From the NCBI GenBank assembly GCA_051362555.1, contig CM120644.1:8688954-8752953 (forward strand): DNA of 64,000 bases, given 5' to 3'. Shown here in pieces: positions 20,870-64,000 of this stretch; position 1 is the stretch's first letter, and every line of letters begins with the position of its first letter. Source of the DNA: Lingula anatina. Taxonomy: Eukaryota > Animalia > Brachiopoda. The position numbers were made by a program, and so were the translations under genes. Below the pieces are notes generated by a model. It searched no databases and had not been told where the DNA came from. It saw nothing but the letters and a program-made list of their open reading frames with translations.

Positions 20870-20900
<31 letters not shown>

Positions 20901-20915
20901 ACGACTGTTACATAA

Positions 20916-20957
<42 letters not shown>

Positions 20958-21150: not shown

Positions 21151-21184
<34 letters not shown>

Positions 21185-21476
21185 TCCAGTTTGAAGCAAT
21201 TGACACCGCCAATGATGAAAGTGATTTTGCCATCGACGATATTGTCATCATTGATGGTTGGTGCGAAGGTAAGTTCTGTATAACAAGTTTTTTTTTCTTA
21301 GTGGACTCACAGGCGTCACATGCAAATATTGAAGAGAATTTTATGTAATTATGCGTTTGTAAACATAAGCTGCGTGATGACAACAAACGCATTTAAACAA
21401 TAATGCTAACACACACATCAAGTGATAAAGAGAGAAAGAGACAGATGGAGAGATCATTCCACATATATATATAGGG

Positions 21477-21532
<56 letters not shown>

Positions 21533-39500: not shown

Positions 39501-39882
39501 TTCACCACATGCATTGCAAATGGTGCGCTATGTTAGTTTGTGGTCGTCAAGGCCGATGGTCAACTTCAGACCATATTGCCGACTGGCCGATTGGTGGCCT
39601 TAATCACGGTTAATTTGAATTGCGATGTCCACTGCTCGCATTTTTATATAATGCACATAACTTGGCGTTAGAATATTGATGTCACTGACCTAATGCTCAT
39701 TGTGAGAGCATTGTAAACATGCAGTGTCGATTACCAGAATATGGATGTAAGATACATATATTCGTTTTTACAGTCTGATATGCTCATAGCTGGGACAAAC
39801 TTTGTTGCGAAGCTTACGGGAACTGTCGGCGAAATGACAAGTTCTGCAGAAAGTAAGTAAGGTTTTATAACGTTACCACAAC

Positions 39883-39916
<34 letters not shown>

Positions 39917-42216: not shown

Positions 42217-42257
<41 letters not shown>

Positions 42258-45200
42258 TTGTTTGTATCTAATAAATTGAATCAAGTAGGCCTACGAGGTT
42301 TTGTTAAACACCATACAAAATGAGAAAGATGTGGTATATCAGTTACTATTTACGCATATTTTCCTTGATATAACACAGAGATAGGTTATAATACATGTAC
42401 ATTTGTACAAACCAAGGGAATAAGTGCAGCATATAGCAAATATGTCAAACTGCACCCGAATATTTCAGAAAACGGTACCGTGAATGCGTCGTCGTCGTTC
42501 TCCTATCAGGCCATGGCCGTGGACCCCCGGATGTGGAATGCTGCCACCAATAGCTGGGAGTCTGATCCCGGACTTGAGGTAATACGTATGCGTCATACTA
42601 CATGTTCTTTACACTAGAAGTCTAAATATATGGATGCCATATATGGAGTTTCGAATATTGAATTATGATGACGATATGACGCCGTATTCAAAAATTACTT
42701 GATTGAATTTATTTGAGTTAGTTGGCTTTTGATTGAATGTATATTTTCTAGCGATGTTGAAAAATGAAACTAGACAAGTTATCGACGCTTATAAGCTTAC
42801 CGGTACTTTGTTTCATCCAGTTGAACTACGTAGTAGTTGCAAACAAGTAAAGCATGGAAAGTGAACCAAATTGACCTATCCTTCGTGTACATACATATAT
42901 CCCACCCATGCCAATAGTCGCAACTGGGACAATTATAACCAGTAGTTTACTACCTGTTCAAGTCTATGGGATAAAGACCGTAAGACAAAACGACATGCTT
43001 GTACATCTCTCTTTTAAAAAAGATAAAATAGTATGTTCAAAGTTTTCCCTACATTTATTACTCAAAACATTTTTTCTCCGTGTGCTATTATGTCTGCTTA
43101 TTCTTATATTATAGATCATTATACACATATCTGCCAATCGATTTTTGTATAGATATCATCTGATTCTACCCCGGAGAAGGTGGTGTTCAAGAGCAACTTT
43201 TTTGGTTCATTTGCTGCGGGATTGTTCGAACCACCGAACACTATCGACTTCGAGGCTGTGTTTGCCAACTTCGGAGAACGTCTCCTTGACAACGCATACG
43301 TTTTTGGTTTCCTGATTGCTCTGATTGTCATTTATATCCTGACCATTTTCTACTGCCGATGGAAAGATAAAAAAGATAAAGAGTTGGTACGTACAGACAT
43401 ACATTCACGCGAAGATTAAAATATTACACCTGTTATTGATTTATTTCTTTTCAAAACTAGGATAGTTAATATGCACAGTTTTAAAGTTGTTTACCCTTTT
43501 TAAAACTTTTGAACCCATCCTTCACAAAATATTTGAAATTTAAGCACTAGAATATATATTTTATAGACTGTACTATCATTCGATTGAAAGGACGTATTGA
43601 TCTGTTGTCAATTTCATTTTTTTTTTTTTTTTTGCATCTTAGGTAAGATCATTATTTTCTTGATGATGTAATCAAATTAATTTAAACATATGCCCATATA
43701 ATATCATTCAATGATGTGCTCTCTGTTGTTTCACAGTGGGCCTATGCTCCCCTAACAGATAATCGACCCAAAGACTCGTACTATTACCGCATCAGTGTGC
43801 AGACTGCTGTGCGTTCCATTTCACGGTGCTCCGCAAACATATTTTTCATTTTACACGGAGAAAACGGAAAGACAAGACCGCGTCATCTAGCGGACGGGGA
43901 AAGAAAGGTTCGTGGAGGCTAGATAATGTTTGATTTAAGACTGTTAATTTAATTGACCAATTAAATTTCATTGTTTTTGGCGGTACTTCATGAAAGTAGA
44001 ATTAAGCGTTACTGCATTGAATAAAAACGTTTTGACAATGTGACTCTCTCTTTCTTCTGCTAGTGTTTTGGCAACGGATCCACCAACAACTTTACCATGG
44101 CGGTCCCTAAATATCTGGGCCGACTGAAATATATGCAAGTTTGGATAGACGACACGGGCCCATCTCCCCATTGGTTACCGAATAAGGTCATCATGTACGA
44201 TATTCAGGAGCGTAAAAGGTAAATGCTATGCGTTCTAACTATATTATATTATATTATATTATATTATATTATCGTTCATAATTATACAAATCACAAGGCA
44301 AACTTAAACGTCTATATACTAGATTTCATTTGAAACCTTTGTAAGCAGAATAAACCAAACGTCTTTCTCAAACTAATGAAGACCATCAAAGGCACTTAAT
44401 TTTTGGAATTCTATACAGTAACAGAACTGTACTCAATTACATATTTTTTTACAATTTCGATGCCTGTATTTAATAGGCGCATTAAAATTGATAGCAATTC
44501 TTAAATGGAATTTTCCAAAGAAAATACTTTCAAAAGCAGTATAATTTTTGAGCAAAAATGTTCATTAGCTTGGTTGTTGGATATACATGAAAATAATATA
44601 ACTTTTGTCTATACAGGTTCTACTTTATGGGAAGCCGTTGGCTGTCGGCGACCAAGTCAGACAAAAGAACAAACAGATTACTGAAGAGTCAGACAGAGGA
44701 TGAGTTTAGGGACTTCAACGCTCTTTTCAGCGAAAACGCCTCCAAGAATTTCTTTGACGATCACCTCTGGGTATCCATATTCAGCCGCCCTACTACTAGC
44801 AGGTATGTAGTCAACCAAAGACGTTAGGATAACTAGAATGGCACTGACAAATCATTTCATTTTGATTGAGCATGGATAAGTCGTGTATTTCATTGAATGG
44901 AAAGAAACTTACTCTGTTATCATTTTGAACTTTGACTCTCTGCTGTAAGGCAGCACAGCAAAGCTTAGAAAGCAGTTGAACGGTGGCACAATTTCTAATA
45001 TTTTTGTTTAAGGTTCACTCGTGTGCAGCGTCTGTCGGTGAGCGTGGCCCTGTTGTTCCTGGGTATGATAACCAATGCCATGTTCTACAGGGGAGACGAC
45101 GAAGGATCGTCTTCAAGTGGCCTGCAAATCGGGCCTATCACCATCACATTCAGACAGGTGAGTGTTCGAATATGGAATTGCTCACACGAGGACCGACCCA

Positions 45201-48200
45201 CACGTACATGTAGTCTGGAAACTCACCAATTGACGTCAGGAAACAATCAGGTTGATAATTATTATATCCGTAGTCTGCAATGGGAGTGCTATGTCATTTG
45301 GCCGTTTATAGTGACGTCGTTTTTTAATCTTTTAATTGACCCTGATATAATAGGACCACTCGGCAAAAAGCTCAAGGTTACCTGTAATATCGTCTGGGGC
45401 TGAACTCAGTTTGGTTTAACTTTGTACAACATCAACTAAAGGCAATTTACGGGGTTTTTTTAATTATTATTTTTAGACGATAATTTTTGCCAAATCCAAT
45501 GTACATTAAACAAGGAATATAAAAGAAATGCCTTGCGGTATTTTACAGATATGGGTTGGACTTGTCGGCGCCTTGATTGTCCTGCCACCAGCTGTGATAA
45601 TGATCGAGATATTCCGTCGGTCTCGGGAAAGAAAACGCTCTAAGACCCCAGCCTGGACCATCGTAGCCGAGGCAAATATCAACTCCTCTGGTCCTCGTAT
45701 TGGACTTGAGGGGAGCAAGTGTGATCTCTCGGGCGATTTGAAGAAACACAGTTGTGAAAATGTCAACGAGGTCGATGGATTATCAGGGAAGGGCTCTGAT
45801 GAGGGAATTGGTAGTTTAGGTGGTTTGGGGTCACAAAAAGATTTACAGCCAGTGGCCACTGTGTCTGACATCCACATTCCATACACATATCCGGCCTTGC
45901 CGCCTCAATATCAGGATATCTATTACGACAAGACGGAAGGCAGTGATGACACGGACCTGTTAATGGCATTCGCACTCCAGCCTTCATCAAACGAAGATTT
46001 TATGAATACCCTGGATCATCTCGATGAATCGAAGAAAAAGAAGAAACCAAAAGGGCCACTGACTTTGCCCTGGGGATTCGTGATTATCGGGTACATTATT
46101 GTGTTTTTGTCTATTGCGGCGTCGGCTTTCTTTACACTCCTGTACAGCCTTCAGTGGGGGAAGGAGAAGTCGCTTGGCTGGTTGCTGTCCATGTTCTTCA
46201 CCATAGTGCAGTCTTTGATATTGGTACAGCCAGTAAAGGTAAGAAAAGTTTATTTTCCAATGTCTTTTATCTTTATTTATTTACAACATTTATTTATTTA
46301 TTTATTTGTTAATTTGATAACATATCCCAAAAAATAAAGTAAGCGAATAAGACAAAAATGTTTAAGGTTCTGTGTATAGATGACGCTTTGAATGTTTTGA
46401 AAATAATAGCCATTTGTGTAACTTTATTTTGTCATTTGTAAATAATTTAGAATTCATTCATTGTAAAAATACCTTTAATATGTCTAAAATACGATTTTTC
46501 ATATAAGGATGCCAAATTATTACATCAATCCTTCAGGTTGTACTGATGGCTGTGGTGTTCTCCTGCTTTATGAAGTTACCAGCTGTAGAGGATGAAGATG
46601 ACGTAAACATGGATGACGTCACAGTTTTGCGGTCAACGCCTCTCCCTGTTCCCGGTATGACGTCATTATATAATGGCGAATTATACAGGATTCCTATTCT
46701 CTGTTGTCATTTTATGTCCTTTTTACATTCTTCTACGACTCAACTACCTCTTATTCATGCTGTTAATGACATTAGTATACTTCTAAAGGTGAAGTTTATT
46801 CTTGGGTCGACCAATGTCTAGTTTTGCTAACAAATATACTAGTAAATCTCAATATGGAAATAATAATTTATTTTGATCATTGATTTTCAGTGACAATCAT
46901 TGTCCCACGTAATCTGGAGTCCCCAGATGACGCCCCAGACGACGTGGAAATAAGACAGAAGAAAATAAAGCTAGAAGAGAAGATGATGTCCAACTTCAAA
47001 AGCATCTTTGTTCACCTCGTCCATCTTTGTTTACTGCTGATCATCGCGTTCAGCAATAGGGACGACAACTTCTTCTTACAGAACGAAGCACTAGTAAAAG
47101 GATTGTCCTTGGAGGACACATCGGTAACCATCTATGCATATATGAATGCGTGTTAATAAAAACATAACATTTGTCGCAAAATCGCTTCTTGCAAGCTCCT
47201 ACCTCCCTTGAAGATTTTAAGTAAAGTCAACATTACAAAACGCAAAATAATGGATCGTTCTGAAAAACGAAGGGTTGTTGAGAAAGTGCATACACGGACG
47301 CCATACATAGTGGATAGTCACTGGTTTTATCAAATTAAGTTAGCTTTTAACTGGGGGCACACTTCATGTATGTACGTGCTCATCACTGTATTTGTGATAC
47401 CACGTCACAATACGACACAGCAGTTATCTTACACAAAGCAGGCTATTCAAACAAGTCTATAAAATTAGTCTTGCAGACTTTGAAAAACAAACGTAAATGC
47501 TCTAGTCAAGCATTTCATAACGTACCACATTATATTCTGTACTAATCATTGACTATGAAAGGCTCACCGTATTTTTTTTAATTTTTTCAGTTTGGTAAAC
47601 TCGATGACCTTTGGCCGTGGTTGACGGACACCATTGTCCCCGAGGTTTTCCCGACGACTGAGTACAACAGTGACGCCCTGTCCACGTACGACCTTCAGTT
47701 CATCAGCATTCTATGTGGACTACGTCTGGGACCTTTGCGCGTGCGCCAAGTTAGGGCAAATAAACGTAAGTTCTTGATTTATGACTCGTAGGCGCATATG
47801 TGAGTTAGAAAGCACTACGTAATGCATTTATAAGTTAGAAAACATTTATAAGTCAAAAGGCACTATTGCATTTATAACTTAGAAAGCAGTTGTAAGTTTG
47901 AAAGCACTACTGTAAGAATAAATCGTCGTGGTCTGAAGTAAAGAGGAACGTGCTAAGGAACATGTGATCAAAATTTGCTAACCTTTTTTAATTATCAGAA
48001 CAAGATTACTCAGGAAGACTTTGTAATTAAGGAGTAGAGAGGACGGTCTCAAATTCTATTGAGTTCAATTTCTCGTCAACAACAAGTTAGAATCAAACAA
48101 ATAACATGATCTCGTACATTTTGTATCATGACATTGTACAAGACGTTTTCTGTTTTACAGAAATTCTTCATCATGCATATATACTTAGCAATTGCAACTG

Positions 48201-50169
48201 CCATTTTGCGACAATCATAGTGTCTTCAGTCAAGAGCGAAAGCCAGAGCTATTCTTCTAGGTTTATGTCTCCGTTAAAATACATGTGCCTGAGTGATTAA
48301 CACAACTGAGGTATAATCTGACTGATATGTTTTTTATTCCACCAATAGGGACATGTAATGTGGTGCCCCCTATGGATAACCTTACCACCGCCTGCAGTGC
48401 ACCCTGGTATTCAGAACAGTCACCAACTAGTAACTTCACAGAAGGTATGTTACCACTACTTGTCATTTTGAAGTGAAACTGTGCCTTAGCTGCTAAGAAG
48501 AAAAAAATACAGAAAACTGTTTTGATTATGCTGCTTTGGGTTATTTTATGATTATACATGTGCGCTTAGTTCAATAAAAAGAAAGAAGTTGGCATGCTTT
48601 AACAAAATATCTTATTTCATTGACATGTGGATATGCATATAATTATTTTACAAATATACCAAAATTACAATCATCACTGCGTTTTTTTTTCTTTTGTGCC
48701 TTGTTATTCTTAAAATAAAGCTTAATGTAACTGACTGTTTTAGCCTGGGCAGAAGTGAACACCACCATTGGTGACGTAGTTCCGGTCGGGTTTGACTACA
48801 AGGTACAGAACACACCCAACGACTACTATCAGACGGGCATGTTTGGGAGTTACCAACCGAGTGGATACATGGTAGACGTCAACTCAGACTCAGAGGCAAT
48901 AACAGTGTTCAACCAACTGAAGCAGAACAATTGGCTAGATAAATACACGCGTGCTGTCTTCGTGGAGTTTACCATCAACAATGCGTTTGTTAATGTGTTC
49001 ACCATGGTGCGGTTGATAGTCGAGTTTCCCGTCACTGGGGGAATATTCTTCACACACAAGGAGACCAGTTTTAGACCATATCCGTACGTTGAGGCCTTTG
49101 ATTTCATTTTGCTGGTCATTCAAGTGATATGGGCAATATTCGTCATCTATTTCTTCATTGCAGCCATGATACGGGCGGTGAAAACGAAAGGAAAGTGTTT
49201 CAAAGACATGTGGTTCTTGCTGGAATTTTTCGACTGCCTTTTTGCGTTCGCCAGCATGGCATTTTTTATACTGCGGACATTCCGATTGATTCAGGTTGTG
49301 GAGGAAGTGAAAAATAATATAGGTACGGTTTTTGTAGCGCAGTTGTACATTATGTACATTTAATATTTTGGCCAAATGGATATTTAAACGTTATGGACTC
49401 GAAAAATTGGCTTATAATACCATGTATCACCTGGAAAACAACTGTGGCTTAATTAGACAACTTTTGTGTCATTTTACTTTAATAGGAATCGCCTGTTTAA
49501 AATATAATATTACAATGATAAATTTATACATTTTGTAAATTTCATCTTTATTTTTTTTTTTTTAGGAAAATTTGTTCCATTTGACCGCGTCACTTTCTGG
49601 GACGAGGCTTATACGGCCTGCATTGCAACGGATACTTTCCTTGTCTTGATGCAACTTTTCAAGCCCATGGCCTTTGTCGAACAGCTAGCTGTCCTGAAAT
49701 ATGCCCTGGTCAAGAGTTTTACGCGCGTCCTCCTCTATATGGTCATCTTCATTCTCCTCTTATATAGTTTTGCAGTATCGCTGAACTTTATGAGCGGGGA
49801 CTACATGTGGGTTTTCAGGGACGTCCCGCACGCTATCTATAACTTATTCGGCGTCATGATTGGACTTGTAAAGTACGATGACGTTAAGGAAGACGATTCT
49901 TTCATCATTGTGCTGGTGTTTTTGGCATTTACGTCGAGCATGAATTTCATTTTACTGAATTTGTTCATATCAATCATCAACGATACTGTCACCGAGGCGA
50001 AAGAAGATGACAATTCAGACATGTTTGACAGGGAATTGAACGAGCATCTCAACGAAAAACTGCGAGACATGTTTGGAAAGAAAGAGGAGCAAGAGAAAAA
50101 GGCCGTCACTTTTGAAAGTAAAAACATTGATTTTTTAATTAAGTGTTTGCCGTTTATGTTCTTCTTCTG

Positions 50170-50212
<43 letters not shown>

Positions 50213-53200
50213 CGAACGTATTATATCAGACAGGCATTACATAATTTTCTCATTCCTTGATCCTTTGACAGTTCTAGCGTATGTTAACTTTTATACAATG
50301 TCATATTACCCATATCCTAGGTACCTTAAGCATTAAGAGCAAGGTTCATCCAGCGCCCCCAGCTATTGTTATCTCAGACTATGAACAGAATGACGCTCCA
50401 AAATCAGAAGCCCCACCAGAGGCCACCGTGCAGCAAGATGGTACAAACTCTGGTGCCTTTAACTCATTACAGCCTGAGAAACCGGTTAAAGCGGGAAATA
50501 AAAAAGCCGTTGACGTCAAAAGCACTCTTGGGAAATCATTCCTTGTTGCAAAATACCACGGTAACAACGGAAAGCGAGGAAAATACGACAAGTCGGTCAC
50601 TGCCGCTTTGGACCTGGCTTATCTGGTAACAATGTTATTTCTTTTATTTCTTTAATATGCCTCAAAAAAAATGACAGCATTCCCTTAAGCTTGTTATTAT
50701 ATATACAAACTATTTGTCAAAAATTGTTTTTCTTCAGTTCATAGCATAATATGACGGTTTTTTAATTTTGCTATTTTATTTTAATTGAGTTAATTTTTTT
50801 CTTCGTAGATGGAGAAGAGCTTCAACTGTTGCGTCCAAACGCTGGAAGCCGAACTGCAAGACACAAGAAACGAGATAGAAATCCGAAAGCGGGAAAACAC
50901 GAAGTTGCGCGACCAGCTCGCCAAGGCACAAAACGTCATAGCCCAGACCAGACAAACGATTGCTGGCATTAAAACCAACATGAGGAAGATGATCCAGGGG
51001 GAGCTGCGAAGACTCAGCGTCGAGGGCGTTCAAAGTGACCAAATAAAAGGCGAACTGATCACTCGGGTTGAGAAGAAATATGAGGCGCTAACAAAATACC
51101 GAAACCGTCCAGAAGCATGGACACTTATCAGGTACAGTGTATGCAACATGCATGTATCAGTGGGTTTTGTTGGAGCCCAGGAAGGGTAAACCGATTTTTT
51201 TATATTTATAGCATCTGTTGCACGAAAGATAGTAACAAAAATGGGCTATTTGATCTCTGCTTCACACTTGCGTTGCAAGCACACTGTCACTTGAAATGAT
51301 ATAAAATAAATCGTGTAAACAGGTGCAGTAGCAAAAAGTTTTTTATGCTTAGATGTATCTTAATTTTTCTTTTAGTTTGCGGAATAGACAGAACGAATTC
51401 CTAGCGTTTGCTAAGGCAATACCTGGATTATTTGACGAAAATGACGTCACGGTAGAGGAAGAAGACCCCGCCATTATCATTGGAAGAGCAGGCTGTAGTG
51501 ACGTGAAAGGGGTCATAGGTCAGGTGATCGCCTTAAAAAGAGCAGAGGATTTTGACTACGAGGTAATACATGAAGTTTATTGTTGTATACTGCACATTCT
51601 GTCATTCGAGGCAACCGTTTGAGCTGTCTAGATTAATCCCGGTGACCTTATAATATCTTTTTTTTAAATATAAGTAGACGGCTCCATGTAGTAACCCGAT
51701 TTTTTGTGTTCCAGGAGAAGTTGTTTCTCGGAATACCGATATTAGGAAAAACAAAGTTGACTTCTTCCGGTGTGTCACTGCGAGCGTCCTATGACGAATC
51801 CGGGGAATTCTGGGAAACGACTCCGCACAAGATTTCTAAAGTCAAAATTGATGACAAGGTAAAAAGAATTATCCCAAATATATTTATTCATTTATTTGTT
51901 CAAATACTCTACTTTCAAAGATACTTTGACTTCAATTGATGTTCCATATTAGATTTTTACCACAATGTTCACAGGGCTATTTTGAAACTTAATATTATAA
52001 CAATCTCATTTATTCTCTAATTATGCACAGGTGAAGGTATTAAGAAAAAAGCATATTAGTCAATACACCCCTTTAAGATCAAGAAAATAGTAGGTTGCTG
52101 TCGGTGTAGCCACGTCTTTTTGTGGGAACACTCTGAAAAATGGACGCCAAATACCTTAATTTGGTTTTCTTTATCTCCAGCCGTTCCAGTGCATATATGG
52201 AGTCTTTAATGGCATCCCTAACCGTTTTGCTGCGGTACATTTATACGACAGGCAAAGCTTTAAGATTTCACCAGCAGGGGGAGTTGTTACCCCAACAGAT
52301 GAAAAGGACTTCATAATGACATTTGAGCAGAAGACGTTTTCTGAGACGAGCGATGTGTCACTTCAGGTATGAGTTGTCCAACTTTTGTTATATGTAATTA
52401 GAGACAGCTAGGGGAAGTGTATTTCCAAAGGATGTGGCTTAAAGCACACCTCACAAATACGATTTGTTACAATGTACATGTACATAGGCAGCAGGCCTAC
52501 CTTTCCAGGTATGGAAATACTTTCATGAAATCATGAAATCATTTCAGAACAACTTACCAATTACGCTTGTTCCTTTGAGCTGGAGTGAGAAAGGGCCGTC
52601 GGATTAAGGGGGGGGCAGGGAGGCCCTCTCCCCTTCTGATTCTTGAAATTAGAATTTTGACTGGTTGAATCATAGTTCTAAACCGTACCAAATGGCACCG
52701 TTTGCCCTCCAAAACACCAAAACTTTTTCGGAGTCCTTGAGCGGGCCCCAAAACCAACGCAAAGGGGAGAAGGGGAGTCAAGGGTCGGCTTCGCATTTGA
52801 AGCCTGCTATTCCTAAAAACTGGACCCCCTTTAAAAAGTCACGGATCCGCCCCTGATCGTGATCCAGGTTATGATTGAAAATTCTTACCACTTGCTAAAT
52901 TTGGACTAAAAAATAATAAATAAAAGAATATGTGAAACTTGGATGTAAAACCTAATAAGTGTTTGGATTGCAGTTGCGATTTGTGTCGACGTACATCGAA
53001 AGGCGGAGACTCGTTATTTGCGTTATCTATTTTGTTATTTTCTGCTTATTTTAAGTAATTATTGCAACAGATGCTTAAATAATTTGAATTTCAGTCATTT
53101 GACATTCATGTTAGATGTGTTTGTCTTATTGTTTTTATGATGTCGCATGCATATGCATGATTTAGTTCAGATTTAAACTGAGATATAATCCAAGGTGAAA

Positions 53201-56085
53201 GCAGTTACAGAAATGCATGTTTTATGTTAAATTTAATCACTGTAGACGTTTTATATGATTGTTATTACTTAATTTTGTGTGCGATCAATGCATGCTTAAA
53301 ATCAAGCCCTATTTATTTTAATTATGTTTTTCTGTGATTTCCATGTCTTTCTTCTCACTAGGCTGTGCCTCTCTCTGAACATCTAACCTATCCCAGTGAT
53401 AAAAAGGGACTGTACATATTATTTGAAAGAAAAACATTTTTAGAGACTGCAAACGTATCCATACAGGTAATATGACCATAGTTGGTTTTTAGCTGCAAAT
53501 GAATCCTCTCGCTTTTTTTTTCTTGGCAAAGCTATAACGTCCATCTTTTAAAAAAATCGTATACAATTGATGTTATTGTAGAACGTTCTGCTTTAGGATT
53601 TACTATATTTGTTTAGCTTGTGCTTGTCTATAGCATTTGTTCTTGTTACGTGTGGCTTTCTTACTGGCATATGCGGTGTTGACGAGACTCTACCTACGCT
53701 TATACACAGAGTGCTTACAATAATAATAATAATAATAGTGTTGAATTACCATGCACGTAATCCCCACTTTTCTGTGCTCAGTATCAATTTATTAATGCAG
53801 TTTTGAGTGTTACACATGTAAATTGATTCCATTTGATATAAAGTTAGTATTATATTTTATTTAACATATGATTACACGTTTGTTAGTTCTTAGAAGTTAC
53901 AAAGTAGATGTTTCAGTACAATGTAGTAATTATAGATGTTCCGGCCATGTGCCTTGTTGAGTAGTAAACCAGACTCCTACACTTAATTATGCCTTATGAG
54001 ACAAAACATTCACTTCCTTTTGGGGTCAAAATTCGCTAAAGGTGAATGGTCGAAACATTGAGTTCAACCTTGGACTATTTACCTCCGCCAAGGAATGATT
54101 ACTGTGTAGGAGCTTGGTGCAGTTAGTACAATTAGAACACTAGGTACTGTTTTTAAGTTTTTAGATATGATTAGATAATTATTGTCTTGTGACTCATGCT
54201 AATTTTATATTGGATTTGACATTTCAAGGTATAGGAGTCTCATTTTATGTACAACAGTACGAGTTCTGTGATCACTAAGTATTATGTGATTAGTGAATTG
54301 TACATACCAAGCGTATTACTAAGATTTGTTTTAATGGGCAAAATTTGACTAGCCGGACATGGGCATGTTCGCACAAGCAATATTTTTCAGAATCATACAT
54401 TCTTTTTAAATATTAAAGGTTAATATAGGTTTCCTATATTTTGATCAACGTCTAACAAAGTTGTTCAGTGAAACACCATACTGGCCACTGGTATCCTAAC
54501 TGAATGTTACGGGAAATGACACCCTGTGGGCATTTCATAATTCAAAAGAAATTCTGCAAAATCAATCTTGTCGTTTTTTACATGAAAATGTAAAACTCTT
54601 AAATCCATAAGTCCCAGACATTGACAATGCATGTATATAGTGCAATCACCAGATGTACATTCACGAGTAATCTCGTATATTTTGACGTTACATCACGAGA
54701 TTTCTTTTAATTTTCCGATAGGTTCTGCCCCTAAGTGACCGACAGAAAGCTAATACCAGCATGCTAAGTGACACGGTCAATTTCTCCGTCAGTTGTAAGG
54801 GCTTCAAGGTGGTCAACATCCAGCTGCCGATATTCACAGATGCCATTAAGGGTAAGGGTGCATATTTATTTATTTATTTATTTGTTTATTTTTATAAGAT
54901 AGAAGCTATTGTTGGCGATGTTCCTTCATTCCGTTAGATTTATTAATGTTATCTTATTGAAGGTTAATTTTTGTGCTTGTGATTATACCAAATTTTACCA
55001 TTTGTCTAACCTCTGCCACGTACAAAACACTTACTGGTATCTTTTCAAGGCTCGTATCTATTTGTATAATAAAGAAATTTGGTATTTCAGACGAAGAAGA
55101 GGTTCAAGTTTTCACAAAATATGGCCGTCTTGGTTGGCAGTACTCGGGAATGGCCTACCGGGTGAACAAAGAGAGAAAAGTGCTTAATTTCGTGCTACGC
55201 CTGCCAGACGTAGGGTAAGATTGCGCTTGGGTTACGTCAATTACCCGGTACTTACATATATTATTTTGTTTAAGTTACTCCATGTAGTTAATACTTATGT
55301 TGGCGTACTAAGCCAAGCTTTTGAACATCGGCATTGTGCACAGGCTTTATACCCCCTCTATAATAATCTAAAGTGAATTAGTGTTATGAAAATCATAGCA
55401 ACCAAACGATTAATGTGATATACGGTATTTCGTGGTGATATTTTCGGATGTTAAGACGTGGCATAATAAATTATATGGTTCCCCGTTAAGGTAAGGCACA
55501 AGCAGGTTGAAAATCTTTTGCTTTTTGTTTCAGTGAATACGCCTGGTTTCGTGTGCAACGCGTGAAAAATGACACAGAAGTAAGTGAATTTATACAGAGT
55601 ATACCTTTCTCTCAGTGTGCATGGATGGTATTAAGAAGTGACACACACACGTAGCTCAAAAATAATGATTGTATAAGTACACAGTGTCATTAGAATTATA
55701 ACAAAAATTTTATATTGGTTTAAAAATAACGAACTTATTATTTTTCTACTTTAAGGGAAAGGGGCTCTCACCAAATGATGGAGGTAAGCATAATTTGCTA
55801 GAGATAATTTGCTCCGAGCAATAATCTAAAATGCGACTCCGGTCCGAAAGTGCGTATGTGAACAGCAGAGGAGGATTTAGAGGGGGTGCCAGGGGATCCT
55901 GACCCCCCCCCCCTTCGATTTCTGAAAAATATCATGGCAATATTGCCCTGTTGAAATAAGAATTTTGACTAACTGAATTAAAGCTCAAAACCGTACCAAA
56001 GGGCACCGTTTGTTTGCCCTCCAAAACACCAAAAACTCTTCACCATGGGGTGACAAACGGCTTCGCATCCGAGTGCTGTCATTCA

Positions 56086-56118
<33 letters not shown>

Positions 56119-57005
56119 AGTGATAAATAATAGAAGATAAATAATCCTGGATCCGCTCCTGAACAGAGAATTGTACAAAACATGTTTCAATACAATCGGT
56201 GTACAGTACAATATAACTTCATCATTAAAAAGTAACATAGAATACATCCAACTACTTACTTGTACCTCAATCCTACTTTTTCAGATCCAATAAACGACAG
56301 CCTTCTTGTAAAATTGGCGCCCATGCTTGGAAAAGACTGGGAATCTTTAGCCAAACATATAGGTCTCTCCCCTCAGATATTTACCAATAATTCGGACGAT
56401 GACACCACCAACGCATGCGCAGTACTGCGGAAGTGGTCCCAGTCTGTGCCTATATCCGCTGACAAGGTAAGGCTGTGCGATTATTCCTTGTACTGAAGAA
56501 TCTTAATATTTATCACGCTGCTTTTATTATTTCTTTTTTTTTCATTAATTACCCGTTTACGTGGAACGTCAATGCGACTCTCTTTGTAACAGAGATAGGA
56601 CAATTATGTACAAGAACAGTAGCCTACTACATGTAGTAGGCCTATATCGGGAGCATGGAAAAAAGGAAAGAAAATGTCCCATTTTATAAATTAAATATAT
56701 TTAAATCATTCATTAGTTGTTAATGCTATTTTGCTTGACAGAATGTAATATGTCTTAACGCAATAGTGTTTGTGGCATCCCTGTGGCGTTGTCATGCAAG
56801 AAACATAGTCCAGAAGCACACGAACTTAATGTTGATCTAATTTTTGGTATGAGCAAAGCGTGTAGTTTTTTGATATTACAGATTATCATATTTATGCAAA
56901 ATGTACCGTTATTCATTTCCGTATATATTCCAGGCTTCAACCTTGCAGAAGGTGTTTGGACAAATTGGCCGGCAGGATTTGGCGGCACTTTTGAAACAGT
57001 CATGA
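5809..57005 (+). CDS. Polycystin-1-like (PKD1L-family) receptor, about 3,232 aa in 52 coding exons: SP-(MAM-FN3)x3-CUBx2-Thr stalk-GAIN/degenerate GPS-TM1-PLAT-polycystin TM/TOP/channel-coiled coil-ZU5-like x2-death domain
   Basis: Manually spliced GT-AG exons: 5809-5811, 9203-9242, 10056-10079, 14308-14483, 14973-15200, 15981-16065, 18982-19275, 19899-20098, 20436-20654, 21184-21268, 21574-21864, 22670-22845, 23125-23349, 23490-23574, 23849-24157, 24561-24745, 25497-25647, 25857-26050, 26768-26909, 37999-38157, 38670-38770, 39021-39077, 39274-39390, 39774-39852, 40244-40344, 40740-40964, 41295-41766, 42469-42578, 43153-43386, 43737-43907, 44064-44218, 44617-44802, 45013-45157, 45549-46238, 46537-46654, 46891-47123, 47591-47765, 48349-48444, 48744-49322, 49566-50117, 50321-50625, 50809-51131, 51376-51562, 51715-51858, 52181-52366, 53362-53466, 54722-54851, 55091-55214, 55534-55579, 55756-55783, 56285-56466, 56934-57005 (TGA). 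Intron phases agree at every junction, the total is divisible by 3, and I saw no internal stop. Confidence 0.8.
6000..6040 (+). repeat. (GATA)n microsatellite
   Basis: About 10 perfect gata units. Confidence 0.95.
6847..7011. mobile_element. MITE with 15-bp TIRs and 5-bp TSD
   Basis: caggcccgtagccag ... ctggctacgggactg (1 mismatch), flanked by attta/attta. Confidence 0.7.
9330..9595 (+). repeat. Diverged tandem duplication of an approximately 135-bp intronic unit
   Basis: aaa.cgtttctgg...gtcctca.gacaa...ctatcatttccatttg...gccac.taag...aaccagtt.tatca occurs twice in succession. Confidence 0.6.
10267..10909 (+). mobile_element. Non-autonomous DNA transposon carrying a RecQ-like helicase fragment (AcademH-like)
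   Basis: Perfect 29-bp TIR caccctgagcttcagagataacttgacac, 8-bp TSD ccaaagta, and an internal decayed ORF LKPEQFEALHHYLLRDDVFCVLPTGYGKSLI (RecQ motif 0/I). Confidence 0.8.
11546..11574. repeat. 29-bp palindromic insertion with 7-bp flanking direct repeats
   Basis: gtgcaat|cagggaattatatc-c-gatataattccctg|gtgcaat. Confidence 0.7.
11723..13359. mobile_element. Fold-back Tc1 derivative built from two inverted transposase 3' halves
   Basis: TA|caacattg...caatgttg|TA; long inverted arms; right arm on + reads LHHDSTHAHSSQVVSDLLQ...PSLNPDNKPTEHPWNELK (decayed QDNA..H / SPDLNPIE.LW) and the left arm carries the same region on -. Confidence 0.8.
13995..14229 (+). mobile_element. Helentron-associated (HINE/DINE-like) non-autonomous repeat
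   Basis: actagaaaagcactccgagagcgcagacctccgccaagg ... aatttcatcaaaatcggtccataactttt ... gacaaacaatcagac ... aacctccttggtgttggtaa, with sub-terminal inverted repeats; an isolated end motif ttacctccgccaagg also occurs at about 54079. Confidence 0.6.
14308..24157 (+). CDS. Three tandem MAM + fibronectin type III modules (12 exons)
   Basis: MAM motifs CDFD..CG, FDW.R..GSTP...TGP..DHTTG..YY.Y.E, C.SFWY.AYG..LG and DI.IDD occur three times. FN3 motifs occur three times (e.g. LSWDPP...VSGLNPDSNYVFAVYA; IQWTAP...LTGLAAYSMWTFSI; LSWTAA...ISGLESGTHYTFVVTP). Confidence 0.92.
15362..15532. mobile_element. Short palindromic MITE-like element
   Basis: aataactctaatactagaacttacattt is inverted to aaatgtaagttccagtattacagttatt, and the inner segments are also partly complementary. 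Confidence 0.5.
16718..18384 (-). mobile_element. Tc1-family DNA transposon with decayed DD34E-type transposase
   Basis: TA-flanked 27-bp TIRs cagggtt(g/a)c(t/c)acttaatatggaatatt; minus-strand fragments from ATG at about 18059: RRPVGKPLLT..H...CLQWA...WNHVVFRDE, YQDDCATPH, WPANSPDMNPIENLW; broken by stops and frameshifts. Confidence 0.93.
20875..21530. repeat. Cluster of (TA)n microsatellites
   Basis: Runs at about 20875-20900, 20919-20952, 21153-21182 and 21479-21530. Confidence 0.9.
24561..26909 (+). CDS. Two CUB domains (4 exons)
   Basis: GFITSTNFPSNYNSSQECTW...FAVEDGYDFVKI...VTFESDHDTEERGFNLTF and GTIEPEGYPVAY...LNFTDFDLQDSSNCSSDYLQV...FCGNSLP...LVFHSDGITQGRGFSVTF. Confidence 0.9.
27084..27586 (-). 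repeat. 3' LTR
   Basis: Direct repeat of 37105-37607 with 4 substitutions seen; preceded on the minus strand by PPT gaagagagggtg (27589-27600). Confidence 0.95.
28982..31404 (-). CDS. env: Env: F-type (baculovirus F/errantivirus-like) fusion glycoprotein; 693-aa ORF plus an in-frame 109-aa extension after a single TAA
   Basis: Signal-like MKILITICMLTVTVSVA, furin site RSQR followed by fusion peptide SLLPLGNFFKNLFGVSSESD, heptad region, GQLSPLLVS, Cys-rich region, two C-terminal hydrophobic helices; frame continues past the TAA at 29312-29314 into ORF 28982-29251. Confidence 0.88.
31575..35366 (-). pseudogene. pol: Pol (PR-RT-RNase H-integrase-chromodomain) with two frameshifts and an in-frame loss of the integrase HHCC finger
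   Basis: ALVDTGA, IIGMDFL; YRFAIDYRKLN, YIDDIL; TDAS, ELECLAVV, FTDNK; HMDILGP, SDRG..F, HPQTNAVCER, GPY; C-terminal YEVERLL...YKVKWKNY..PTWEPEENI. One extra A at about 35003-35010 and one missing A at about 34075. Confidence 0.93.
35367..37064 (-). CDS. gag: Gag, 565 aa
   Basis: S/T/P-rich N-terminus, capsid-like PEKFKG...EDADRWL..F...LTDAALDWY...LKEEF...QLPGEPV..Y, and two CCHC knuckles (CLSCGKYTHLRRNC, CFVCNRVGHISKIC). Confidence 0.93.
   Translation of the reverse strand: MQGENPADWSPPAANTRQAVEKKKIEGLEGKTSERLPKQTIKFYTRTPNFSPAPSITKEKCVRSKLSRRNLLLSSDSSDDEEIQTTHQINVNTQSETVGNSAFSIVDQCVPTNLELYESKIETGAKFSLSLTSVVNPTAIAIPKPTTITTQISELPGQTDPSPIAPSHLSSSVTKKQTTTTSKIQLPETICPPQKTHQQSIAAPLNSSSTAPSPQFISAATTKKNNNSQLPGDPVSTYLKSPEIFRKTLGRKIKTLENMSSDWSLAPEKFKGNGQEDADRWLDHFKNYINFKALDHDQIISIFPLLLTDAALDWYETLAEEVKQEWRNLKEEFLNRYRPRNTETWSITSKLFKRQQLPGEPVQNYIASMRHDAKLAQLDEKITLTAIVNGLLPQIRPFVVQQEPRDLDQLMSQARLAENAVQPSSIKQNVDLMEVTAKIDALGAQMSQVINATRRAEVHIMGTSQRETQTLMRPRGQQTGAFYRARNRYIGNRRRGDFQDSMHRENKQSGPRSGQRSEEEGFPMCLSCGKYTHLRRNCYARNLKCFVCNRVGHISKICYYARANK
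37084..37102 (-). promoter_or_regulatory. Primer-binding site resembling the complement of tRNA-Ala 3' end
   Basis: Minus strand TGGTGGAAGAAATCGATCC compared with the tRNA-Ala(AGC) complement TGGTGGAGAATGCGGGCATCGATCC (recalled from memory; gapped match). Confidence 0.55.
37105..37607 (-). repeat. 5' LTR
   Basis: Direct repeat of 27084-27586; followed on the minus strand, after 2 nt, by a TGG-starting PBS. Confidence 0.95.
37999..43386 (+). CDS. Thr-rich stalk, GAIN-like region with two furin motifs, degenerate GPS and first TM helix
   Basis: TTTEALTTT... exon; RKRRS (40315-40329) and KRRRRS (41703-41720); W...W and SFAAGLFEPPNTIDF (the PKD1L post-GPS PPN.IDF motif); hydrophobic VFGFLIALIVIYILTIFYC followed by RWKDKKD. 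Confidence 0.85.
43737..50117 (+). CDS. PLAT/LH2 domain and polycystin multi-pass membrane/channel region
   Basis: YYYRISVQT...ANIFFILHGENGKT, LGRLKYMQVWIDDTGPSPHW, FFDDHLWVSIFSRPTTSRFTRVQRLS, YSLQWGKEKSLGWL...QPVK, RLGPLRVRQVR, LKQNNWLDKYTRAVFVEFT, MNFILLNLFISII are all typical polycystin-1-like motifs. Confidence 0.95.
50173..50209 (+). repeat. (CT)n microsatellite in the intron after the last TM exon
   Basis: Perfect ct run. Confidence 0.9.
50321..55579 (+). CDS. Cytoplasmic tail: linker, coiled coil and tandem ZU5-like domains (DTHD1/PIDD/ankyrin-like)
   Basis: Heptad-rich LEAELQDTRNEIEIRKRENTKLRDQLAKAQNVI; then VIGQVIAL...LFLGIP...W...RFAAVHLYDRQSFKISPAGGVV...FIMTFEQKTF...VSLQ...LSDTV...VNIQLP...GW, resembling a ZU5-ZU5 pair by eye. 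Confidence 0.6.
52590..52855. mobile_element. MITE, same family as 55866-56161
   Basis: Ends ggatccgcccctg; shares internal aattttgact...aaaccgtaccaaa.ggcaccgtttg...ccctccaaaacaccaaaa with the second copy; left end degenerate. Confidence 0.6.
55866..56161. mobile_element. MITE with CAG...CTG ends and 5-bp TSD
   Basis: aacag|cagaggaggatttag ... ctggatccgctcctg|aacag; internal similarity to 52590-52855. Confidence 0.65.
56285..57005 (+). CDS. C-terminal death domain (last two coding exons)
   Basis: LLVKLAPMLGKDWESLAKHIGLS...ACAVLRKW...ASTLQKVFGQIGRQDLAALL* fits the death-fold pattern LG.DW..LA..LG, L..W, L..IGR.DL. Confidence 0.85.
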
Positions 57006-59191
57006 ACTTGGCATTCGAACTGGGCTCATTATAGCTCATGAAGCATTTCATCAACGAAGTCTTTGCATAAGAACATCTACTATAATGCACTCATTGTAAC
57101 ATGCCATATATATGTATGCCGTGCTTCTTAGTACCCAACAGTTCACTAACCACGAATTAGAACGTTAACCGTACCCTTAACTGTGGCAGTCAGGGCAGTT
57201 GTAATACTGAGGAGAGAGTTGAAAGTCGCAAAGAAGATGGAAAGATACCTTCCCTTCACAGGTTTGGTTTAGAAAAAAAAAGAGAACATTTCCTCACATG
57301 GGAATTCTAGACATTAAACTGATGTGACTGGACACAGAAAAGAGGGGGAATCGGGCTTATATATCCTCGTTTTTTACCGATACTGCAGACTTATTTGATC
57401 ACAGTGCAATATCATCTTTTTATTGTAAATATGCATGTAGGCTATAAAAAACCATATTATGTCTTGTATTAACAAAGGTAAAAATGATATAGAAAACTTT
57501 ATGAATAATGCTTCTGTAAAAGTAAATCACCGAAATGCTGCCTTACTTGCCCCTTACATTAATTTATTTGAAAGCTCATTGACGTGCTTAATCATCTGTA
57601 TACAGTACGAGATAGCGTGGTAGATATATAAACGTGTATTGATGACATCTTATCAATTAAGGTTACATTAATGTGTATCAGACAGAAGCTACTGACTATG
57701 ATAATAGATATTTGCATTTTAATAATTATGAATGTGTTCATCTACATTAATATTGGAAAAAAAACCCGTAATACCCCATACTAAGATACCACCAGTACGA
57801 CTAATGTAACGCTAGAATTTTAAAAAAACCTTCCTATGTGCCAAAAAATACGCACAAATTGCACACGTGGAAACTCTGTACATGGACATTCCCAGAACTT
57901 AGTTACTAAAACTGTAACTCACACTGGCACCAAAGAAAGTGTTAAATAAGAAAGGATCTGCATGTTCCTTGGTTAAACTCCAAATTTCGGGAAGTTCGGT
58001 CAACCACTGTGAAGTGATTGTTGATCTTTTTAACTTGCTGGGGGAGGGGGGGGAGGAGAAATATACTAACACCGGTGACTATAATCATTTCTCTTTGGTG
58101 CCAGACTGCACAATGGCCAACTCTGCTTGCACAACCTGACTGCATATTAATTTTACGTTCCAATTTTCATACTAACTTTCACGTAGAAAATTTCTGCATC
58201 AAATAACTGTGACAACCTCTCGCGGGCGATGTACAGTGTAGTTAGTTGTGTACATCTTATAGGTCGGTGTGACAGGAATGGTGCCTTGGTCTCATTAGAC
58301 CAGTGCAGGTTAGGGTATGCAGGACATGTCGTGGTCATGGGAAACAGATTAAGGTGCTTAGTGGACTACCATGTCTGTCACACCGGCATATTTACCAAAG
58401 ATGGATGCTTAAGATATATAATATATTATTATTCTTATATTCTTCAAGATGCGTATTTATTTAAAAAAATAAAGATTTAAATATGTTTTGAAATAAAACA
58501 GCGTTTGTTCAATTCTGTTTCAATATTTTTTTACTTACGTCCCAAACATACGGTGCGTAGGTACCGGTACATTCCCCCCCCCCCCTCCACTCCTACATCC
58601 TGAGGTGTGCTCCAAATTAGCATAAAATTTTAAGTCTTAGCAAAGACATCTAAGTATCTACTCGGCTATATAAGTTACTCATATATTTCGACCAATAGCC
58701 AAATGGATGCTTTTCCTCTTCCCGTCGATCTTTGTAGTGCGTCTTAAGAGCAAACTGGGATAACCACAGCAATAAGTTTTAATCTCAGTGCATGGTGACA
58801 TTCGCCCATCTACTACTGTAGACAAAGCATTGACCATGCAGTAAAAGACTATAAAATCTGGACTTCCAATGTTAAACAGTGAACAGGCTGTAGTGGAAAA
58901 GGGATAACATTTCGTTTGCAGAGTAAAAACAAATGATTGCGATTTCTGCCTCATGACCAGAACATTTTAATAGATATATCAATAAAGAATTAAGATCAGT
59001 GCTGCCGTTTCAAGATGCCGCCAGCGCCAATAACGGCCGGAGGTCATCAAGTACTCAAGAGATAGGTAGCTTACTTGTAGCACAATGCTGGCGCTGCTTA
59101 ATACTCATAGGTCAGAAACTCCCATCCAATTGTTAATCATTGACTGATAATAGTTTATGTCACTAAGATATATTGTAGTTATATGTAAGTA

Positions 59192-59229
<38 letters not shown>

Positions 59230-59529
59230 GTCCTACCCCCTCCCAACCCTGCCATATCAAAACAAACAAACAAAAAAATGAATAGTATAACGAACGAAAA
59301 TAGGTAAACCCAAATATTATCCATCCCTTACTGTGCGCTTCTTTAATTTGAGAAAAAAATGCTTGCTTCGCTTCGCTCGACATCCCTTATCCTTGTGCCC
59401 CGCCCCGCCCACTACTTAACAAAGTCCGTGGTTCACCACTAGCGTCTAGCTATAGCTTCACTGGCTTATTTCAGTTCATTCGTATGATAACCATTGCAGG
59501 GTTGAGTCGTTGTATAGTGCTTCATCACA

Positions 59530-60365
59530 ATGACTTCACTAAAGTTCTCCGCACTTATTCTGGTACAGGTAGCGTGGCTAGCCTTCGTAACGTGCGATGT
59601 AAATGTCTCACCGACATTTACCGAAATCACGGACCGTGTCAAGTCGTTGGAAGCTTACTATACCAGCCTGGCCCTCTGGGTGGAGGGACTGGAGGTTGAG
59701 ACCCGTCAAATAGGCAAAGCAAGCGGAAAATCGAGTTTGTGATTTTTTTCCTTGTATATTGGTGATACACATATCGGTATCTTTATATATACCTGGTATA
59801 ATATCTTTATAAAATTTTCAGATTCATTCTGATAAAAACGCAACAAAATGTGAACATATTTTGCTTATTACAGCAGACACATGAATCGCCAGTTAGCAGT
59901 CCTGTGTTTTTATATAATAGCACTGGATAATCTGCTGGCTTTTTTTCAGATGTGCCTGTGCCGGTTGTTGCATTTTCGACACAACTGACCAAATCTCTAC
60001 AAGTAAGTGTAAACGACAACATCGTGTTCTCTGGCGTTATCCTTAACACTGGAAATGCGTACGATCCAGCAACTGGACGCTTTACTTGCCCTGTTAACGG
60101 CACTTACTTCTTTACGGCAACCATTCTGACGTCATCCAACGGGGGAAGAGTAGAGCTCAAGTTGGTCAGCAGCAAGAAACCGGGAAATACTCTGATGCTT
60201 CTCCTTGCTACCAGCCATACCGACCACAACAGCGGGTCCAATTCTGTAATCTTTCAGTGTGAGAAAGGGGAGAAAGTTTACTTACAAGTCAACCACGTTG
60301 GTGCACCGAGTCCAACTTTGTGGAACTATTGGTCCACATTCTCTGGATATCTCATCGCCATATAA
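59530..60365 (+). CDS. Secreted C1q-domain-containing protein (signal peptide, coiled coil, gC1q), copy 1; exons 59530-59734 and 59950-60365
   Basis: MTSLKFSALILVQVAWLAF signal, ITDRVKSLEA...VEGLEVETR coil, VAFS...IVFSGVILNTGNAYDPATGRFTCPVNGTYFF...GSNSVI...GEKVYL...STFSGYLI; phase-1 intron; AATAAA at about 60528. Confidence 0.93.
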
Positions 60366-62222: not shown

Positions 62223-62764
62223 TACCTTACAATGCACCCAACTGTGCAGACTCCCCACATAATGTGCTGTCTGTCTCCCAGGGACTGTTTACCTCAAACA
62301 GCTGTTATCGATCACGATAAACCTACTCTTACCTCTGGCCAAAGACGGTTCCAGGGAGGGTACAGCAGGCACTCAGCTTCCGAGGTGACAAGTCTACTCC
62401 CTACCGACCCCTACCACCTCCCCCTCTCAAAAATAAATAAATAAATAAATAAATAAATTAATTAAAATAAAAAAATAAAAAGGTAATAATAATGATAATA
62501 ATAATAAATATAATGTATGATTACCGAAATTAGGCAATCCCACATATTTCCCTTCTCTAGCTGTGCGATACATATTTAATATGAAAAAAAACCTTGCTTC
62601 GCTTCGCCCGACATTTTCCATCCTTGCCCCCCCCCCCCCTCTGCCCGTCCACTTCTTACCAAAGTCCGTTACCCACCAGAGTCTATCTATAGCTACAGTT
62701 TGATTTAAGTTAATTCGAATGATAACCATTGTAGGGTTTAGACATTCTATAGTGCTTCATCACA

Positions 62765-63558
62765 ATGATTTCACTAAAGTTTTCAACCCTTTTTCTGATA
62801 CACTTGGTGTGGCTAGCATATGGAACGAGCGAACAAAATTTATCACCGAACATTACCGAAATCAGCAAGCGTGTCAAGGCGTTGGAAGCTTCACTCACCA
62901 GCATGAGTGTATGGGTGGAGAGACTGGAGCTTGAAGCCCGTCAAATGCGCAACGCAAGCGGAAAATCGGGTTAGTGAATTTTTATGTATAATTGGTGATA
63001 ATCCTATCGGTTTATAATAGCTTCATAAAGAAACCTGTGTTTTGTGTAATATAGAGGACATTTTTAACGCCAGACAGTGGTCCTTTTCATGATTTCCCCA
63101 AACCAAATTGTGTGACCCTGGCTCTGATACTGGCTTTTTTATCTTCAGATGTGCCGGTCGTTGCATTTTCGACGCGACTAACCAAGTCTCTTCCAGTTAG
63201 TGCAAAGGACAATTTAGCGTTTTCTGGCGTTATCCTTAACACGGGAAATGCATACGATCCAGCAACTGGACGCTTTACTTGTCCTGTCAACGGCACTTAC
63301 TTCTTCACGGCAACCATTTTGACGTCATATAAAGGGGGAAAGGTCGAGGTCAAGTTGGTCAGCAGCAAGAAACCGGAAGATTATCTGATGCTTCTTCTTG
63401 CCGTTAGTCTTACCGACCATAACAGCGGGTCCAATTCTGTAATATTTCAGTGTGAGAAAGGGGAGGAAGTTTACCTACAAGTTTTCTACGTTGATGCACC
63501 GAGTCCAACTTTGTGGAACTATTGGTCCACATTCTCTGGATATCTCATCGCCACATAA
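62765..63558 (+). CDS. Secreted C1q-domain-containing protein, copy 2; exons 62765-62969 and 63149-63558
   Basis: Close paralogue of copy 1 with the same phase-1 intron, intact frame and the same gC1q motifs. Confidence 0.93.
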
Positions 63559-64000
63559 AAATGAAAAGTGAAAGCAAATGTGACGTTGTTTTGACGTTTT
63601 GGCGTCACAATACACTTGTCATTTACCCCTTGATGTTTACAAGTATGTGATTAACAATTGTGGTCATTTAAATTATCTTACTGTGACTACAAGTTGATTA
63701 TAAATACATCCGTTACCATAATGAAATAATAAACAATAAAACAAGCTGCAATTATATGATACGTATTGTTACATCTTTGATCGAATAGTTCAAGTGTCCG
63801 CTATTTGTTCCGATTATTTATGTCGTTCCTTCTGAGCATTGTCTGGGGAAATTCGGTACACCCCTCTGTCGTGGCCCGGGGTCCTCGCAGAAGTCGCCTC
63901 AGAGAGAAATGCTTAAGCTGTGTTTGCCTCGTGTGATAAAAATAAAACGTAATCACTTCAGGGGTAGTCATAACTTAAAGGGGTGTACTTTCGTTTTACT

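Follow-up and report, generated by a model that had tools for sequence, protein, structure and literature searches.

PKD1-like polycystins (PKD1, PKD1L1-3, PKDREJ, planarian PKD1L-2, Platynereis PKD1-1) combine a large ectodomain, a GAIN/GPS-position region, a first transmembrane helix (TM1), a PLAT domain, a TOP (polycystin) domain, the helices S1-S6 and, at the C terminus, a coiled coil, and the family has been described with a short C-terminal tail (PMC5318412; here and below, papers are cited for the parts of their text that were available). PC1 binds PC2 through the coiled coil of its C-terminal tail (PMC9672506), and PKD1/PKD2 pairs take part in mechanosensation in Platynereis and in planarians (PMC6294549; PMC11448475). 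ZU5 and death domains are found together in other kinds of proteins, among them the ankyrins, with their ZU5-ZU5-UPA-death supramodule (4D8O, 6M3P, 3UD1), PIDD1 and UNC5. UNC5 is a single-pass receptor of the Ig/TSP type. The UNC5b ZU5-death interface is known, and PIDD cleaves itself at HF/S following each of its ZU5 domains (PMC3210808). The two kinds of modules meet in one gene of the brachiopod Lingula anatina, in the 64,000-nucleotide stretch analyzed here (assembly GCA_051362555.1, contig CM120644.1, positions 8,688,954 to 8,752,953; "the window", whose own numbering is used below, all features being on the plus strand unless stated otherwise). Its product has the whole PKD1-like layout, but its last transmembrane exon (S4-S6) is spliced to a tail with a death domain at its end, and homologous fusions occur in a further Lingula protein and in molluscs. 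It differs from the described family in this tail, in which the coiled coil is retained within 610 residues including a likely ZU5 pair, in its MAM/FN3/CUB ectodomain, and in having NFFGSF rather than HL-T/S at the GPS position. That the tail is carried by an ectodomain-bearing, full-length form is putative.

Between the TM1 exon (43153) and the stop codon at 57003-57005, both included, the gene can be read through 24 exons with AG/GT ends and agreeing phases, the sole stop being the terminal one. The last transmembrane exon (49566-50117; Pfam PKD_channel, E 2.6e-21) is followed by 12 phase-matched exons (50321-50625, 50809-51131, 51376-51562, 51715-51858, 52181-52366, 53362-53466, 54722-54851, 55091-55214, 55534-55579, 55756-55783, 56285-56466 and 56934-57005), all with GT-AG introns, which extend the frame without interruption by 610 residues. 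A preliminary description, made from the sequence alone, had proposed about 610 residues in 12 exons, and the rebuilt model agrees with it. RNA reads were mapped to positions 38001-58000 from eight of the nine listed same-species runs, at 6-30% of each run and with a threshold of three reads for a junction. Sense-strand cover of the locus comes from three runs, X1-X3, all of one study, and X4, X5 and X7 yielded mainly repeat-derived reads. The junction 50117/50321, which joins channel and tail, is spanned by 22 reads (5, 7 and 10 across X1-X3, three of the eight runs), and 50625/50809 by 5 reads in X1, with 4 loose ends in X2 that match the preceding exon. These were the junctions that the preliminary description had singled out for RNA-seq, and the reads do not fit two units, one transcript ending near 50260 and a second gene beginning with the ATG of exon 50809. 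Further junctions were read at 51562/51715 (4, 3 and 2 reads in X1-X3, plus 1 in X8), 51858/52181 (2 reads, X3), 52366/53362 (3 reads, X3), 55214/55534 (4, 1 and 3 reads) and 55783/56285 (4 reads, flanking the 9-codon linker exon 55756-55783). In all, 7 of the 12 tail introns have read support, both decisive ones included, and no junction was listed for the other 5 or for intron 49323-49565 at a depth of 1-5x and the three-read threshold. A possible 6-nt micro-exon (52031-52036, AG/GT-flanked) in intron 51859-52180 is omitted by both reads crossing that intron. Sense-strand reads continue into the likely 3' untranslated region (57006-58510) up to 58000, the end of the stretch mapped; AATAAA occurs in it at 58468 and 58492, the poly(A) site itself being unseen in the reads. 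Short intronic repeats at 44549-44594, 52641-52725 and 55903-55934 draw transcriptome-wide reads in all runs, which are not the gene's expression.

The tail opens with a low-complexity linker and the start of a helical segment common to Lingula (50321-50625, both flanking junctions being present in RNA). The next exon (50809-51131) encodes the expected coiled coil, of about seven heptads; in the best register, hydrophobic residues fill 12 of 16 a/d positions, compared with 2-8 in the others. Because a tail-less Lineus protein has a C-terminal coiled coil to which it shows a weak match (E 0.001), this exon is likely to represent the ancestral PKD1-type coiled coil, to which the remainder would have been appended. 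ZU5-1 (51376-52250) comprises exons 51376-51562 and 51715-51858 and the start of 52181-52366, and ends with IPNRF where ankyrin has FPQYF; it was recognized by a profile match to the ankyrin ZU5A/ZU5B junction, its N-terminal half being assigned by position only. ZU5-2 (52251-55579) comprises the rest of 52181-52366, then 54722-54851, 55091-55214 and 55534-55579. When five homologous tails were combined with two window exons in a profile, it matched the ZU5-ZU5-UPA-death structure of ankyrin-2 (4D8O, E 4.6e-11) and the ankyrin chains 6M3P and 6M3Q (E 1.5e-6 and 1.7e-6, via the ZU5 stretches alone). The best stretch was the ZU5A/ZU5B junction, where a hand count gives 17 identities to ankyrin-2 over 58 ungapped positions in exon 52181-52366; this exon alone gave no ankyrin match in the PDB, and one exon submitted to the ESM Atlas had no match at 0.9. 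For folds, the tails of Lingula and Ylistrum were modeled as proxies for that of the window. With Foldseek, 4D8O ranked third for the Lingula model (E 1.4e-3), and ankyrin ZU5 entries made up seven of the top 10 for the Ylistrum model (pLDDT 46; E 0.018-0.079). On the sequence evidence, an ankyrin-type ZU5-ZU5 pair in the tail is likely.

The resemblance to the ankyrin supramodule extends to the tandem ZU5 junction sequence, apparently uncleaved ZU5 domains and a C-terminal death domain, but UPA, ankyrin repeats and the basic residues that bind phosphatidylinositol 3-phosphate (PI3P) are missing, and the tail is part of a channel subunit in cis, and not a separate protein bound to one. No ankyrin repeats were found in Pfam scans of the orthologues or of the window exons scanned. 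Without the duplicate exon described below, 147 residues separate the start of ZU5-2 from the death domain. In ankyrin-1, ZU5B alone takes up 147 residues and UPA a further 129 (10.1101/2022.11.21.517333), which leaves no space for a UPA domain, as the preliminary description had suspected. The same holds for its statement that a PIDD-type HFS motif is lacking: neither HF/S nor SF/S occurs at the ZU5 ends of the four tails scanned, IPNRF standing at the aligned place, and all tailed proteins have Pro after ZU5-1, as ankyrin does, where PIDD has the catalytic Ser. Compared with PIDD1 and UNC5, which share the ZU5-plus-death combination (in UNC5 also on a membrane receptor), the window protein lacks leucine-rich repeats (LRR), HF/S and UPA, and has a multi-pass, channel-type core. 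A 105-nt exon of phase 0-0 (53362-53466) duplicates part of ZU5-2 as encoded by exon 52181-52366 (score 71 vs a maximum of 41 in 2000 shuffles). It is included in 3 reads of X3, has zero depth in X1 and X2 and is missing in Lingula XP_013384714.1, and therefore may be a cassette exon.

The tail ends with a single death domain (56285-57005, exons 56285-56466 and 56934-57005, the latter with the stop). Exon 56285-56466 alone scores above the Pfam Death cut-off (24.7 bits vs 22.6; E 2.7e-5), in keeping with the clear death domain first reported. It is orthologous to the first of the two death domains of Lingula and abalone proteins (71.5 bits with the DD1 profile vs 6.1 with that of the second, DD2), and no DD2 was found in six frames of the window. 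The Lingula proxy model of this region is confident (pLDDT 73-94), and its structural matches (Z 12-16) include FADD (Z 16.0, root-mean-square deviation 1.2, 87 aligned residues), PIDD (Z 13.2, deviation 2.6, 94 aligned) and the ankyrin-G death domain (Z 13.3), a set that does not single out a function. In the PDB, the top match of the window exon itself was PIDD, at a non-significant level (E 0.44).

The same architecture is present in other proteins. Among the best 150 of 544 proteins found by HMMER with the last transmembrane exon, the top match was Lingula XP_013384714.1, collinear with the window from TM1 to the death domain (47% identity over 1719 columns); its tail is 34% identical over 536 columns (E 8e-96), and from TOP to S6 the window and its nearest Lingula relative share 56% over 489 columns. 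This orthologue (XP_013384714.1/UPI00078A29CA), annotated as "uncharacterized", shares the coiled coil, the ZU5 pair and the first death domain, and differs from the window protein in a second death domain in the longer record, in having no duplicate exon and in a shorter ectodomain, with one FN3 and two CUB domains. Among molluscs, a PKD1-like channel followed by a ZU5-like pair is found in Haliotis cracherodii, H. rufescens and H. asinina (XP_071110902.1, XP_046351489.2 and P0168), whose proteins have PLAT, TOP, the channel and two death domains, in Argopecten (XP_069119237.1) and in Ylistrum (XP_060074442.1), the record of the latter without a death domain. These tailed mollusc proteins are about 28% identical to the window protein in the channel half and belong to a clade that also contains tail-less or short-tailed records. 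The ZU5 seed profile was weakly matched by Ylistrum (E 0.013) and Argopecten (E 0.099). Tails of at least 30 residues are present in 127 of 161 channel-matching stored proteins, and the death-domain profile matched six, five being seeds or close cluster-mates and one, Argopecten, independent (E 8e-8). The Argopecten domain is closer to the second death domain, while the window retains the first; death-domain content thus ranges from two (Lingula, abalones) through the first only (window) or a second-like one only (Argopecten) to none (Ylistrum record). Word-index searches returned nothing among 1012 candidates with the last transmembrane exon, only itself among 7125 with the Lingula tail, and only itself and H. 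asinina among 5694 with an abalone tail; given these sparse returns, the range of the fusion is undersampled.

In two quick trees, the window and its Lingula orthologue are sisters (SH-aLRT 100), placed in one group with Lineus and five Lingula paralogues that lack the tail, the tailed mollusc genes lying in a mollusc clade. A single clade of tailed genes was rejected by the approximately unbiased (AU) test (p 3e-4, 6 rows vs 13), and the second tree agrees. One ancestral fusion followed by losses fits best, on account of the shared domain order and the shared end motif of the death domain; alternatively, fusion may have happened repeatedly, or some of the tail-less records may be truncated models. 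The PKD1-like protein with a ZU5/death tail is a variant of a spiralian PKD1-like subfamily, present and unremarked in RefSeq models, on which automatic Pfam labels already mark Death.

Upstream of the tail, the second half of the TOP domain and S2-S3 are encoded at 48744-49322 (Pfam Polycystin_dom, E 3e-21, and PKD_channel), the first read-covered exon in X1-X3, and TM2-TM6 with the first half of TOP at 45013-48444 (hydropathy; Polycystin_dom), exons with almost no X1-X3 reads. The PLAT exons lie at 43737-44802; one of them matches Pfam PLAT (E 0.002), and the region is collinear with the Lingula orthologue, where PLAT is recognized at E 4e-14. Ten helices exceed the hydropathy cut-off, the S4 position being uncalled, where 11 are expected of a PKD1-like protein, and membership of this family can be accepted. 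A Thr-rich stalk, a GAIN-like region, the GPS position and TM1 follow each other at 37999-43386, collinear with the Lingula record. The HL-T/S consensus of GPS autocleavage is common, though not universal, in PKD1-like polycystins. Here NFFGSF takes its place, with neither Cys nor HL-T/S, and GPS cleavage is therefore predicted not to occur. Among 19 homologues checked, 12 have NFFG[ST]F, three deuterostome sequences have HLT and four have neither. Basic clusters in the extracellular GAIN-like region (KRRRR and RKRR, at 41295-41766 and 40221-40344) resemble furin sites; a comparable RKRR occurs in abalone homologues, and such clusters could substitute for GPS cleavage in ectodomain shedding. 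In the ectodomain, MAM is paired with FN3 three times before two CUB domains follow (14308-26909; Pfam MAM, fn3 and CUB, exon by exon). No REJ module or PKD repeat was matched by Pfam in 14 ectodomain exons or in the Lingula orthologue, a scan weakened by domains split between exons; both are absent from PKD1L3 as well (PMC1934368). Ectodomains vary freely in the NFFG[ST]F subfamily (relatives compared include P0003, P0007 and P0145), from a C-type lectin, five kringles or mucin + EGF to FN3 + CUB and MAM + FN3 + CUB. The open GT-AG chain of this upstream part starts at 15981, and the resulting model has 3108 residues, with some exon ends picked by script and possibly off; the chain could not be joined back to exon 14308, and the first coding exon and signal peptide were not located.

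On balance, we consider it probable that the protein is a PKD2-partner subunit whose tail acts as a built-in, uncleaved ZU5-ZU5-death scaffold. By analogy with the family, it would assemble with PKD2 via its channel part and coiled coil and serve a sensory role, mechano- or chemosensory. Because self-cleavage is predicted to be absent, both at the GPS position and following each ZU5, the tail would remain tethered and work by local clustering rather than release, anchoring or clustering the channel and recruiting partners. The ZU5 pair would be the core that stays constant, and the death domains interchangeable additions that serve homotypic contacts. This preference for a tethered scaffold follows from the absence of self-cleavage motifs and from the constancy of the ZU5 pair while death domains vary; the partner would probably be neither bound as in ankyrin's PI3P pocket nor a UPA-bound dynactin.

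Several observations weigh against this scaffold. No window exon or homologue matches Pfam ZU5 as a single sequence. Against a mollusc-only profile, the ZU5 region of the window scores 1.1 bits, below the best of 500 shuffles (4.1), vs 9.9 for Lingula, so its link to ankyrin runs via Lingula and one exon. The proxy models are confident for the death domains only, the ZU5 block having pLDDT values of 32-65 and the Ylistrum model a mean of 46, and a second structural comparison of the ZU5 region returned only other beta-sandwiches (Z < 7), ankyrin ZU5 being unlisted. The ZU5-like pair first proposed thus stands on the profile of homologous tails and finds no backing in single-sequence Pfam matches or a confident fold. 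No PIDD ZU5 pair is among the PDB matches, and the ankyrin likeness may reflect which structures are solved. The ankyrin residues that bind PI3P, K1157/R1158/R1160 (PMC4274267), align with E, T and D in the window; with these replaced and UPA missing, known ankyrin functions are not transferable. The loss of death domains in Argopecten and Ylistrum may be due to gene-model errors. In RNA, cover starts abruptly at about 48.7 kb, with about 130-fold less upstream in X1-X3 (per exonic base, 9.9 read bases over 48673-52007 vs 0.07 over 3721 exonic bases upstream, where 233 of 273 read bases fall in one repeat-containing bin), and no read joins ectodomain to tail, nor was a full-length transcript seen, in the eight runs over 38001-58000. 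The architecture first described (PKD1-like core, coiled coil, ZU5-ZU5 and death domain, with neither UPA nor HF/S) is supported, and channel exon and tail are spliced together, the link from ectodomain to tail being unseen in RNA.

The drop in cover could reflect either a short RNA starting inside the TOP domain or lost 5' ends. In the former case, an internal start at about 48.4-48.7 kb would give a product of half a TOP domain, S2-S6 and the tail, without ectodomain, as the working form in the expressing tissue. It might act as a regulatory or dominant-negative subunit or as a membrane-tethered adaptor, the long receptor being perhaps rare or made in other cells. Besides the step in cover, six in-frame ATGs in exon 48744-49322 and the start of the Argopecten model at the matching position speak for such a form, and a short channel-plus-tail RNA may be dominant in the three expressing runs. 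However, poly(A) libraries lose 5' ends and X1-X3 all come from one study, a pile-up of read starts is not listed in the region mapped, X9 has a few reads on the exons at 38-42 kb and X8 about one near 47.6-48.4 kb, truncated homologue models begin at many different places, and the Lingula and abalone records are full-length with the tail. We therefore regard a short working product as quite unlikely. That two adjacent genes, a PKD1-like one and a ZU5-death one starting at ATG 50809, are joined by occasional read-through or prediction error is very improbable. Exon 50809 does open with ATG, five tail introns have no listed junction and the tailed genes do not form one clade, but this alternative is largely refuted by the reads over 50117/50321 and 50625/50809, at a level like that of other junctions; moreover, the frame has no earlier stop, and annotated proteins of a brachiopod and four molluscs show this fusion too.

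The function of the tail could also be that of a death-fold signaling module as in PIDD or UNC5, in which the ZU5 pair would keep the death domain shut at rest and clustering of the receptor, driven by a stimulus, would nucleate death-domain assemblies with adaptors of the FADD, RAIDD or MyD88 type, leading to caspases or NF-kB. The confident fold of the Lingula death domains and their matches to FADD and PIDD, the rank of PIDD for the window exon and the precedent of the UNC5b interface are consistent with it, but ankyrin-G matches equally well, the tail is without HF/S, UPA and LRR, and the FADD-like second death domain is lost in the window; we hold this possible but doubtful. Its extension, a spiralian sensor-channel that carries its own death-fold signalosome seed, coupling Ca2+ entry and the sensing of mechanical or chemical cues directly to caspases or NF-kB, together with an ectodomain-less isoform from an internal promoter, appears unlikely. 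The ankyrin-like, uncleaved scaffold fits somewhat better than death-fold signaling, judging by the ankyrin match, the Pro in place of Ser, and the presence of ZU5 in every tailed homologue while death domains number zero to two.

The remainder of the window holds mobile elements and two further genes. A Ty3/gypsy-type long terminal repeat (LTR) element (27083-37607, minus strand) is a young insertion in intron 26910-37998 of the polycystin gene; its 504-bp LTRs are 99.2% identical, and it has gag, reverse transcriptase/RNase H/integrase/chromodomain open reading frames, the pol region extending across more than one frame, and a 717-residue env-like frame with no Pfam match. A Tc1/mariner-type transposase (17082-18063, minus strand; two open reading frames, HTH_Tnp_Tc3_2 and DDE_3) lies in an intron of the ectodomain region, and an inverted repeat at 11721-13361, with arms of about 610 bp at 79% identity, is probably a non-autonomous DNA transposon. 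Downstream are two tandem C1q-domain genes on the plus strand (59500-60365, confirmed by Pfam C1q, and 62700-63560), 87% identical over 489 bp.

No description of a PKD1-like protein fused to ZU5 and death domains was found in the available parts of the open-licence literature searched (polycystin, PKD1, PKD1L, ZU5 and death-domain topics), nor was a paper on DTHD1 with ZU5. A survey of abalone transient receptor potential (TRP) channels reports eight PKD1-like proteins with 11 transmembrane helices, and its available text mentions neither ZU5 nor a death domain (PMC12980990); "death domain" or "death" is likewise absent from the available main text of a cephalopod survey and of Platynereis, planarian, zebrafish and sea-urchin papers. 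The locus holds a variant of the PKD1-like family that is real and conserved and, to all appearance, undescribed; the "undescribed receptor class" of the preliminary description agrees with the lack of an earlier account and was overstated as to rank, this being a variant within a spiralian subfamily. Neither a ZU5-ZU5-death module without UPA nor a TRP-family subunit with a death domain was found described in that literature. Signaling by the C-terminal tail of PKD1-type proteins is an open question in research on autosomal dominant polycystic kidney disease and on sensory cilia, and the natural fusion, retained as it is in brachiopods and molluscs, suggests a ZU5-death adaptor among the partners of polycystins. 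This raises the question of whether, in animals without such a fusion, stand-alone ZU5-death proteins, such as ankyrins, PIDD1 and DTHD1, might bind to polycystin complexes.
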